Shown here: in pieces, positions 2,117 to 3,790 of the stretch
Layout: each line of letters opens with the position of its first letter
How positions within the stretch are numbered: the stretch's first letter is position 1
IMG/VR virus record: IMGVR_UViG_2671180444_000011
Source: a virus
Lineage: Duplodnaviria > Heunggongvirae > Uroviricota > Caudoviricetes
Direction: 5' to 3' (one strand)
Length of the DNA: 6,567 nucleotides
Position numbers and translations under genes: made by a program
Notes under the pieces: generated by a model
Seen by the model: the letters and a program-made list of their open reading frames with translations, nothing else
Told to the model about the DNA's origin: nothing
Database searches by the model: none

Positions 2117-2131
2117 GGTAATGACTTCAAC

Positions 2132-2635
2132 TTATTGATAGTGTTTTATGTTCAGATAATGCCCGATGACTTTGTCATGCAGCTCCACCGATTTTGAGAA
2201 CGACAGCGACTTCCGTCCCAGCCGTGCCAGGTGCTGCCTCAGATTCAGGTTATGCCGCTCAATTCGCTGCGTATATCGCTTGCTGATTACGTGCAGCTTT
2301 CCCTTCAGGCGGGATTCATACAGCGGCCAGCCATCCGTCATCCATATCACCACGTCAAAGGGTGACAGCAGGCTCATAAGACGCCCCAGCGTCGCCATAG
2401 TGCGTTCACCGAATACGTGCGCAACAACCGTCTTCCGGAGACTGTCATACGCGTAAAACAGCCAGCGCTGGCGCGATTTAGCCCCGACATAGCCCCACTG
2501 TTCGTCCATTTCCGCGCAGACGATGACGTCACTGCCCGGCTGTATGCGCGAGGTTACCGACTGCGGCCTGAGTTTTTTAAGTGACGTAAAATCGTGTTGA
2601 GGCCAACGCCCATAATGCGTGCAGTTGCCCGGCAT
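2132..2635 (-). CDS. insB: IS1 InsB reading frame (C-terminal part of the InsAB' transposase); not expressible as a fusion because insA is interrupted
   Basis: 167-aa ORF ...[54 protein letters not shown]...[39 protein letters not shown]..., recognisable as IS1 InsB. Confidence 0.8.
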
Positions 2636-2653
2636 CCAACGCCATTCATGGCC

Positions 2654-2657
2654 ATAT
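2654..2657. repeat. Target-site duplication (ATAT) of the IS21-family insertion, right copy
   Basis: IS1 sequence ...CCATTCATGGCCATAT is followed directly by the IS21-family terminus; uninterrupted IS1 has a single ATAT at this point (…CATTGATATGGCCATG…). Confidence 0.7.
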
Positions 2658-2716
2658 TGTCAACGCCACGATGTTTGACCGTTATTTGCCATTTTCATGC
2701 CCGCTAAATACTTTCG

Positions 2717-3053
2717 TTACTGATGCTGTCCGCTTTCCACCATTTCATCATCACTGATTGGCGTTGTGTTTTTGGTCAGCACTCCAGCTTTACGTTTCTC
2801 TTTTAACCGGTAACTCTCTCCTTTGATATTCAGCGTGGTTGAGTGATGTAGCAGCCGATCCAGGATCGCTGTTGCCAGTACGTGATCTCCGAACATTTCT
2901 CCCCAGTCTGCGAACCCTTTGTTTGACGTCAGTATGATGCTCGCTTTTTCATATCGACGGTTCAGTAGCCGGAAGAACAGACTGGCTTCCTCTCTGTTCA
3001 TCGGCAGATAGCCTATTTCATCCAGGATCAACACCCGGGCATAACTCAGTTGC
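2717..3053 (-). CDS. istB: IstB helper ATPase (IS21 family), C-terminal part; N-terminal part lies in the N-run
   Basis: ...[84 protein letters not shown]..., i.e. the Walker B (hhhhDE) and C-terminal region typical of IstB / DnaC-like AAA+ proteins. Confidence 0.75.
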
Positions 3054-3276
3054 NNNNNNNNNNNNNNNNNNNNNNNNNNNNNNNNNNNNNNNNNNNNNNN
3101 NNNNNNNNNNNNNNNNNNNNNNNNNNNNNNNNNNNNNNNNNNNNNNNNNNNNNNNNNNNNNNNNNNNNNNNNNNNNNNNNNNNNNNNNNNNNNNNNNNNN
3201 NNNNNNNNNNNNNNNNNNNNNNNNNNNNNNNNNNNNNNNNNNNNNNNNNNNNNNNNNNNNNNNNNNNNNNNNNNNN
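3054..3276. other. Run of 223 N (assembly gap or masked sequence) inside the IS21-family element
   Basis: Direct observation. Visible IstA and IstB fragments imply roughly 1.2-1.5 kb of real sequence is missing, so the gap is not to scale. Confidence 0.95.
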
Positions 3277-3413
3277 CTGGCTGGCGGTTCAGGGTATTTG
3301 AGGTAGCGTCTGACCGTCCGTTCAGAGCAACCAATCTGAGTCGCAATATCGACGATGTACGCGCCCTGCTGGTGCATTTGCTTTATCATGTAAAAGTCCT
3401 CTCTGCTCAGCAT
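3277..3413 (-). CDS. istA: IstA transposase (IS21 family), N-terminal 45 residues; remainder lies in the N-run
   Basis: MLSREDFYMIKQMHQQGAYIVDIATQIGCSERTVRRYLKYPEPPA, a helix-turn-helix N-terminus characteristic of IstA; ATG at 3413 on the minus strand. Confidence 0.65.
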
Positions 3414-3514
3414 GTTGATGTCCTTTCTGGTGTGAGAACCTTAAGGAAACAACATGTTGGGTGGAGCGGACAATCCAAATGGCGAATTACCGTCTTATAT
3501 CACTGGCGCTGACA

Positions 3515-3518
3515 ATAT
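3515..3518. repeat. Target-site duplication (ATAT) of the IS21-family insertion, left copy
   Basis: The IS21-family terminus ...GCGCTGACA is followed directly by ATATCAATGATTTTCTG (IS1). Confidence 0.7.
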
Positions 3519-3690
3519 CAATGATTTTCTGGTGCGTACCGGGTTGAGAAGCGGTGTAAGTGAACTGCAGTTGCCATGTTTTACGGCAGTGAGAGCAGAG
3601 ATAGCGCTGATGTCCGGCAGTGCTTTTGCCGTTACGCACCACCCCGTCAGTAGCTGAACAGGAGGGACAGCTGATAGAAACAGAAGCCAC
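3515..3690 (-). pseudogene. insA: IS1 insA, truncated after about 58 codons by the IS21-family insertion
   Basis: [58 protein letters not shown] matches the InsA N-terminus (zinc-finger region); the frame then runs into IS21-family terminal sequence. Confidence 0.8.
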
Positions 3691-3790
3691 TGGAGCACCT
3701 CAAAAACACCATCATACACTAAATCAGTAAGTTGGCAGCATCACCAAAATTGGTTATGCTGTTAAGAGTGGTTACTTCGTCACACAGCTT

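Follow-up and report, generated by a model that had tools for sequence, protein, structure and literature searches.

IS21, an insertion sequence (IS) of 2131 bp in ISfinder, is the founding member of the IS21 family; it carries istA followed by istB with a one-base overlap and generates 4-bp target duplications, properties that reportedly go back to the work of Reimmann and Haas. IS1, represented here by IS1A of Escherichia coli K-12 MG1655 (NC_000913.3 19796-20563), has imperfect terminal repeats of about 23 bp with the reference forms GGTGATGCTGCCAACTTACTGAT and GGTAATGACTCCAACTTATTGAT. We analysed a stretch of 6567 bases, IMG/VR record IMGVR_UViG_2671180444_000011 (hereafter the window, meaning the whole stretch), in which the two elements are nested. 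Very probably, a full-length IS21 (2130 bp) transposed into insA of an IS1A-like IS1 in an ancestor of Shigella sonnei and duplicated the tetranucleotide ATAT.

The interrupted IS1 and its IS21 insert

The IS1 of the window lies on the minus strand in two pieces of 541 and 227 bp (Table 1), which together make exactly 768 bp. In a global alignment the joined sequence was identical to K-12 IS1A at 764 of 768 positions with no indels, the four mismatches falling at window positions 2127, 2620, 2623 and 3619. Chance resemblance is excluded, because removing the insert and one ATAT restores the 768-bp element base for base. ATAT occurs once in intact IS1, at canonical nucleotides (nt) 228-231. A first-pass annotation of the window had described an IS21-family element within insA, flanked by a clean ATAT duplication, and IS1 parts summing to 768 bp once one ATAT was removed; its coordinates were exact. 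It had also stated beforehand that both junctions should match IS1, and the joined pieces do align end to end with IS1A.

The piece on the side of the right inverted repeat (IRR) contains that repeat, the insB frame (2132-2635), the A6C frameshift site (TTAAAAAAC, the reverse complement of ~2571-2580) and the 3′ third of insA, and it matched Pfam DDE_Tnp_IS1 (E=5.9e-78) and NCBIfam transpos_IS1. Both ends correspond to the IS1 reference forms: the left inverted repeat (IRL) is exact (GGTGATGCTGCCAACTTACTGAT at 3723-3745, read on the minus strand), and the IRR, GGTAATGACTTCAACTTATTGAT at 2117-2139, has one T-for-C change at 2127 (IRR position 11). In complete S. sonnei genomes this T is also present in the intact IS1 beside IS629, and it is absent from the IS21-bearing and holin-side IS1 copies of CP022457.1. 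Complete S. sonnei genomes contain IS1 copies that match window positions 3515-3745 at 100% identity. The insA/insB′ domain set of IS1, in which a -1 frameshift at A6C joins the two frames, was found (Zn_ribbon_InsA, a partial HTH_Tnp_IS1 and DDE_Tnp_IS1), its arrangement broken up by IS21, and the Pfam and NCBIfam matches of all four fragments agree with IS1 and IS21.

The insert (2658-3514) begins with TGTCAACGCCAC and ends with CTGGCGCTGACA. As the first-pass annotation had proposed, it possesses its own imperfect terminal inverted repeats: the tips TGTCAACGCCAC and TGTCAGCGCCAG agree at 10 of 12 positions and have TG...CA ends, and the similarity between the two ends continues past the tips (..ATTTGCCATTT vs ..ATTCGCCATTT). 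A multi-repeat organisation of the terminal inverted repeats is described for the IS21 family (PMC10122671). The right-end piece holds the istB stop codon (2717-2719) and matched Pfam IstB_IS21 (E=4e-38, profile positions 154-238 of 238). The left-end piece, which holds the istA ATG (3413-3411), matched helix-turn-helix (HTH) domains and, weakly, NCBIfam transpos_IS21.

Both pieces are 98-99% identical to istA/istB copies named "IS21-like element IS21 family" by the Prokaryotic Genome Annotation Pipeline (PGAP) in complete E. coli genomes, and show 0 differences over 634 bp from the 2130-bp IS21 of CP022457.1 (L005). S. sonnei plasmids carry copies that are 100% identical, and the large virulence plasmid has up to five matching places. 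Named through the PGAP-annotated copies and judged by sequence identity, the insert is IS21 itself and more than a member of its family. The family assignment of the first-pass annotation was thus right and can be refined to IS21 proper, present in the window as an incomplete copy with an N gap.

The apparent insert length of 857 bp, made up of 634 bp of real sequence and 223 N, is not that of an IS21-family element; complete IS21 copies examined were all 2130-2131 bp. The N run, the only one in the record, most likely stands for 1496 bp of collapsed IS21 repeat, a repeat-induced assembly gap, because IS21 is multi-copy in S. sonnei. Assembly from short reads is expected to break within such a repeat.

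Table 1 Features of the window, with positions counted from its first base.
Feature	Position	Strand	Basis or content
Left flank: degenerate IS629/IS1203-like (IS3 family) copy	1032..2116	+	PGAP names, ALIL pseudoknot, broken reading frames
IS1, IRR-side part, 541 bp (canonical IS1 nt 228-768)	2117..2657	-	Global alignment to K-12 IS1A
ATAT, first copy of the 4-bp target duplication	2654..2657		Intact IS1 has one ATAT there
IS21 right end, 396 bp (canonical nt 1735-2130)	2658..3053	-	IRR tip TGTCAACGCCAC, last 111 istB codons
223 N	3054..3276		Most likely hides 1496 bp of IS21, with the greater part of istA and the 5′ 60% of istB
IS21 left end, 238 bp (canonical nt 1-238)	3277..3514	-	IRL tip TGTCAGCGCCAG (minus strand), first 45 istA codons
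Truncated InsA fusion open reading frame (ORF), 67 residues	3690-3487	-	58 InsA residues and 9 from the IS21 end
ATAT, second copy	3515..3518		Read from the sequence and the IS1 alignment
IS1, IRL-side part, 227 bp	3519..3745	-	Global alignment; IRL and insA codons 1-58
Right flank: lysis cassette, DLP12-like lambdoid prophage	3746..5103	+	Defines the right junction
P21-type holin	3936-4151	+	Lysis cassette
Lysozyme	4151-4648	+	Lysis cassette
Rz	4645-5103	+	Lysis cassette

Truncation of InsA

The native part of the fusion ORF ends in ...HQKIID and is followed by the foreign residues IVSASDIRR and a stop codon within the IS21 end, which bears out the earlier statement that InsA is truncated after about 58 residues. 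Zn_ribbon_InsA is complete over 1-36 (profile positions 1-35 of 35) and only profile positions 1-17 of 46 of HTH_Tnp_IS1 are left; the stub retains the zinc ribbon and has lost nearly all of the HTH domain. The separation of insA from insB and the loss of InsAB′, likewise proposed in the first-pass annotation, are apparent in the layout, the insA start now lying across IS21 from the A6C site and insB. About 2.1 kb would separate this start from the two, each of which is intact in itself. Because of this split, neither the InsA repressor nor the InsAB′ transposase can be made from the interrupted IS1. With both its ends present, we infer that it would be mobile only with transposase supplied in trans by another IS1 copy. 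IS1 transposase prefers to act in cis, and mobilisation in trans would be inefficient.

The same insertion in public Shigella sonnei genomes

An exact-sequence look-up found the 67-residue fusion protein encoded on six NCBI contigs, three of them >1 Mb. CP022457.1, identified in a paper as S. sonnei 2015C-3566, carries IS1::IS21 at ~4.669-4.681 Mb with identical junctions (GGCCATAT / TGTCAACG on one side and GCTGACA / ATATCAATG on the other). At its ATAT site IS21 is full length, with 2130 bp and intact istA (390 residues) and istB (266 residues). The locus was also found in AGRD01000055.1, ADUU01000018.1 and CWUL01000003.1. CP022457.1 and the window have in common the junctions, ATAT, the 634 bp of IS21 and the 67-residue ORF. 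They differ in surroundings: in CP022457.1 the nested pair lies between the lacY-side and ninE-side flanks of a DLP12-like prophage, whereas in the window it lies between an IS629 remnant and a holin region. Judging from the shared junctions, the insertion in the window is a known, inherited S. sonnei event.

CWUL01000003.1 (L007) shows a variant at ~4791-5561, where no more than 60 bp of IS21 remain after the same IS1/ATAT/IS21-IRL junction. This stub is joined directly to IS1 position 483 via a 5-bp overlap, and the IRR-side flank is the mutS region. The structure may reflect a true deletion derivative, or it may be an artefact of assembly.

The exact left-junction pattern had 0 matches and the right-junction pattern two in viral contigs, and neither had a match in genome contigs or in metagenome contigs. 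The IS1/holin junction was absent from all complete E. coli genomes searched, and the full left flank occurred in none of them. A locus of E. coli strain 51489 (L001) was rejected as an equivalent, as its IS21 lies inside an IS3-family element and not in IS1. An independent draft contig, IMGVR_UViG_2675903595_000013 (L030), contains the right half of the window at 99.94% identity over 3268 bp, with the same order of holin, 227 bp of IS1, ATAT and IS21. At its positions 3040-3621, ~208 bp of IS21 are followed by a jump into IS1, a single N and another IS1 start. The jump is clearly a repeat-induced chimera, and this contig is a weaker witness because of it.

Other IS21 insertions in IS1

We compared queries from both junctions and a reversed-junction query with 5,426 complete E. 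coli genomes and found six further independent insertions of IS21 in IS1 (loci L002, L003, L009, L026, L027 and L028), giving n=7 with the S. sonnei event. IS1 positions in this survey follow the orientation of the window, in which the S. sonnei site is 538-541. Insertions in the same orientation as in the window were found in pVTB432v-2 (537-540, CATA), TUM9757 (527-530, TTTC), and EC1722-1 and three similar records (319-322, CCGG); those in the opposite orientation were in a second locus of TUM9757 (331-334, ATAC), ECOCN22 (427-430, TATG) and FDAARGOS_1304 (309-312, CAAC). All are nested as in the window, at sites 1 bp, 11 bp or 110-230 bp away. Including ATAT, the duplication was 4 bp long in seven of seven events; that of IS5376 is 5 bp (PMC10122671, PMC11208146). 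Many other members of the family likewise make duplications of 5 bp.

A bias towards a single orientation was considered and rejected as an effect of query design, since the reversed query gave the three opposite events. Places where IS1, another IS and istB occur together (H1-H12, H14 and H17) were rejected as nested copies by span arithmetic rather than by sequence: their IS1 and IS21 pieces lie 680-830 bp apart, more than the 227 bp of IS1 that could be left, so these places are not direct junctions.

Three of the seven sites fall within 15 bp (nt 527-541, in insA; window ~2643-2657) and three within 26 bp (nt 309-334, in insB; window ~2425-2450), while one lies outside both stretches. Simulation gave P ~0.006 for the pairwise clustering, with n=7 and a threshold picked post hoc, and the clustering is only a weak lead. 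A non-random preference of IS21 for these two stretches of IS1 seems unlikely to us; were it real, local DNA shape or end-like sequence could be the cause, and IS1-rich genomes, such as those of Shigella, would be sinks for IS21. TCCAACGCCAT lies 12-20 bp from the nt 527-541 cluster and TGTCATACGCG within the nt 309-334 cluster. Along IS1, 19 ungapped matches to the IS21 tips reached at least 8 of 12 positions, and the best (9 of 12, nt 425-436) coincides with the ECOCN22 insertion, a picture indistinguishable from chance. In published in vitro work, the family member IS5376 is reported to lack strong specificity for target sequence and to select bent DNA by its structure (PMC10122671, PMC11208146).

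The reverse nesting was also seen. On three E. coli plasmids (L010, L011 and L025) an intact IS1 lies inside the istA end of IS21 at three positions, leaving 396, 341 and 386 bp, respectively, of the IRL side of IS21. In pCRST038 (L023, 2476-3563), ISEc62, which is 86% identical to IS21, abuts IS1 position 444 (window orientation) in the same orientation, and its other side is truncated beside an IS91-family element.

Neighbouring features of the window

IS material makes up nearly the whole record apart from prophage genes. On the minus strand, positions 1 to ~77 resemble IS911 at its left end and ~78-1040 encode an IS3-family orfB product (Pfam HTH_21 and rve). The element next to IS1 on the left was rejected as IS3 and is IS629/IS1203-like by its PGAP names. 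This copy, truncated at its 3′ end by the IS1 IRR, defines the left junction and stands outside the nested pair. An Rfam ALIL frameshift pseudoknot at 1366-1482 (119 bits) looks intact, and the orfA and orfB frames of this copy are broken.

Downstream of the lysis cassette, positions 5305-6056 hold the gene of a 165-residue protein with KilA-N and ORF11CD3 domains and an overlapping 85-residue ORF that had no Pfam match. The two are typical cargo of a lambdoid late region. We take ~6480-6567 to be an IS2-like end, so that both termini of the record would lie in IS sequence, IS911-like on the left and IS2-like on the right. The 9-mer TCATTGGAG is common to both termini (1-10 and 6558-6567), probably by coincidence at two ribosome-binding regions or as an artefact of contig trimming.

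Discussion

The structure is best explained by transposition. IS21, with istA as its HTH and DDE transposase and istB as its AAA+ helper, would have cut its target 4 bp apart and so duplicated ATAT at IS1 nt 228-231; both junctions of the insertion are visible in the window, with the middle 1496 bp replaced by the 223-N assembly gap. IS21 appears to be the later arrival of the two. Several observations weigh against this account as applied to the window. The interior of the insert is unreadable here, its completeness is deduced from other copies, and the estimated gap of 223 differs widely from 1496. No 8-9-bp IS1 duplication surrounds the composite, with GGGCCTTTA standing against AAAATTGGT at the outer ends (2117 and 3745). 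Window 1-2657 is 100% identical to the locus of an intact IS1 (L013, CP023645.1, and L016, CP049179.1), and window 3515-6567 matches the locus of a second intact IS1, by the holin gene, at 100% identity (L029). The two halves match two different intact IS1 loci, and their physical linkage in the source strain is therefore unproven. An insert of truly ~857 bp, that is, an internally deleted, non-autonomous IS21 derivative in which the 223 N mask real bases, seems improbable to us. The N run has a specific length rather than the conventional 100, and deletion forms may exist at the locus, as in L007, where just 60 bp remain of IS21 at the IRL end and run into IS1 position 483. Nothing in the window addresses the masked bases. 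Against such a derivative, all complete copies at the junction are 2130 bp, the ends that are left show 100% identity with the full-length copy, and IS21 is a multi-copy repeat in S. sonnei. That unrelated rearrangements brought together two IS1 and two IS21 fragments with no transposition at all has nothing in its favour beyond the general IS mosaic of the window. It is effectively refuted by the exact complementarity of the IS1 halves, the precise 4-bp duplication, the intact IS21 tips (TG...CA) at both junctions and the uninterrupted IS21 in the same structure in complete genomes.

The outer IS1 flanks are not the original context of the insertion and arose by homologous recombination between IS1 copies or by an assembly mis-join; the missing IS1 target duplication, typically 8-10 bp in this family, indicates later rearrangement or chimerism, not that the element falls outside the IS1 family. 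The window may be either a product of such recombination or a chimeric scaffold. The first-pass annotation spoke of a single IS1 copy. The nesting holds, and each half is bordered by the flank of a different intact IS1 copy of complete S. sonnei genomes, so the two are perhaps not one physical unit. A real arrangement, formed by recombination between IS1 copies after the IS21 insertion, is to our minds an evenly balanced proposition. Deletion from nmpC to ninE between direct IS1 repeats would have produced the right side, and exchange with the IS629-flanked IS1 the left. In L013 and L016 the next genes after that intact IS629-flanked IS1 encode a lipoprotein (Pfam Lipoprotein_9) and a YicS-family protein. 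The layout of L005 agrees exactly with the deletion: in complete S. sonnei genomes the IS21-bearing IS1 is a third copy, which has the orientation of the holin-side copy and lies 4.7 kb away from it, and the right flank of the window is that of the distal copy. Window 3515-4214 equals the holin-side copy of L005 at 100%, to the end of the locus, and this intact copy has a AAAATTGG duplication on both sides. L030 independently supports the right side, other S. sonnei assemblies (L007 and L019) vary around these IS1 copies, and at IS1 position 111 the window agrees with the intact copies and differs from the IS21-bearing copy of CP022457.1. Two events are required, though, the left side has no independent support, and the evidence comes from fragmentary drafts throughout. 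A chimeric scaffold is a serious possibility that we hold at somewhat less than even. The insertion would be real and its flanks not its own, the source having, like CP022457.1, IS1 at three separate places, namely intact by the IS629 remnant, intact by the holin gene, and as IS1::IS21 between the lacY and ninE sides. The assembler would have passed from the unique flanks via shared IS1 into the IS21 junctions and joined the contigs across the N run. The scaffold is just 6.5 kb long, joined by N and with IS sequence at both termini; both its flanks are those of intact IS1 copies in complete genomes; its arrangement is in none of the complete-genome loci examined; its left join must bridge a 541-bp repeat; and the related contig L030 has an obvious chimeric jump from IS21 to IS1. 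On the other side, the holin flank belongs to the IS1 nearest to IS1::IS21, as a real deletion would give, and this would be an unlikely pick if IS1 flanks were joined at random. L030, a second and non-identical draft, shows the same order, and the 231-bp repeat on the holin side can be spanned by single reads of 250-300 nt.

The biological weight of the nesting is small, as IS-in-IS nesting is routine in Shigella and the exact junction is already present in public complete genomes. IS21 in IS1 at ATAT was already known; the analysis adds the exact naming of the elements, an explanation of the N run, a warning about the flanks and a weak hint of target choice. The ATAT junction and the 67-residue fusion ORF mark one ancestral event and might be used to trace the lineage of those S. 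sonnei genomes in which they occur. The window is also an example of repeat-rich draft scaffolds whose flanks may belong elsewhere.

Compared with the described elements, the insert resembles IS21 in its TG...CA tips, in its imperfect terminal repeats with internal repeated blocks and in its 4-bp duplication. It is 98-100% identical to PGAP-named IS21 copies and shows no difference in kind, the window holding only the two ends. The window IS1 resembles IS1A of E. coli K-12 in its length of 768 bp, its 23-bp terminal repeats, insA, the A6C site and insB′. Unlike IS1A, it is interrupted at nt 228-231, carries a T at 2127 in its IRR and lacks a flanking duplication of 8-9 bp.

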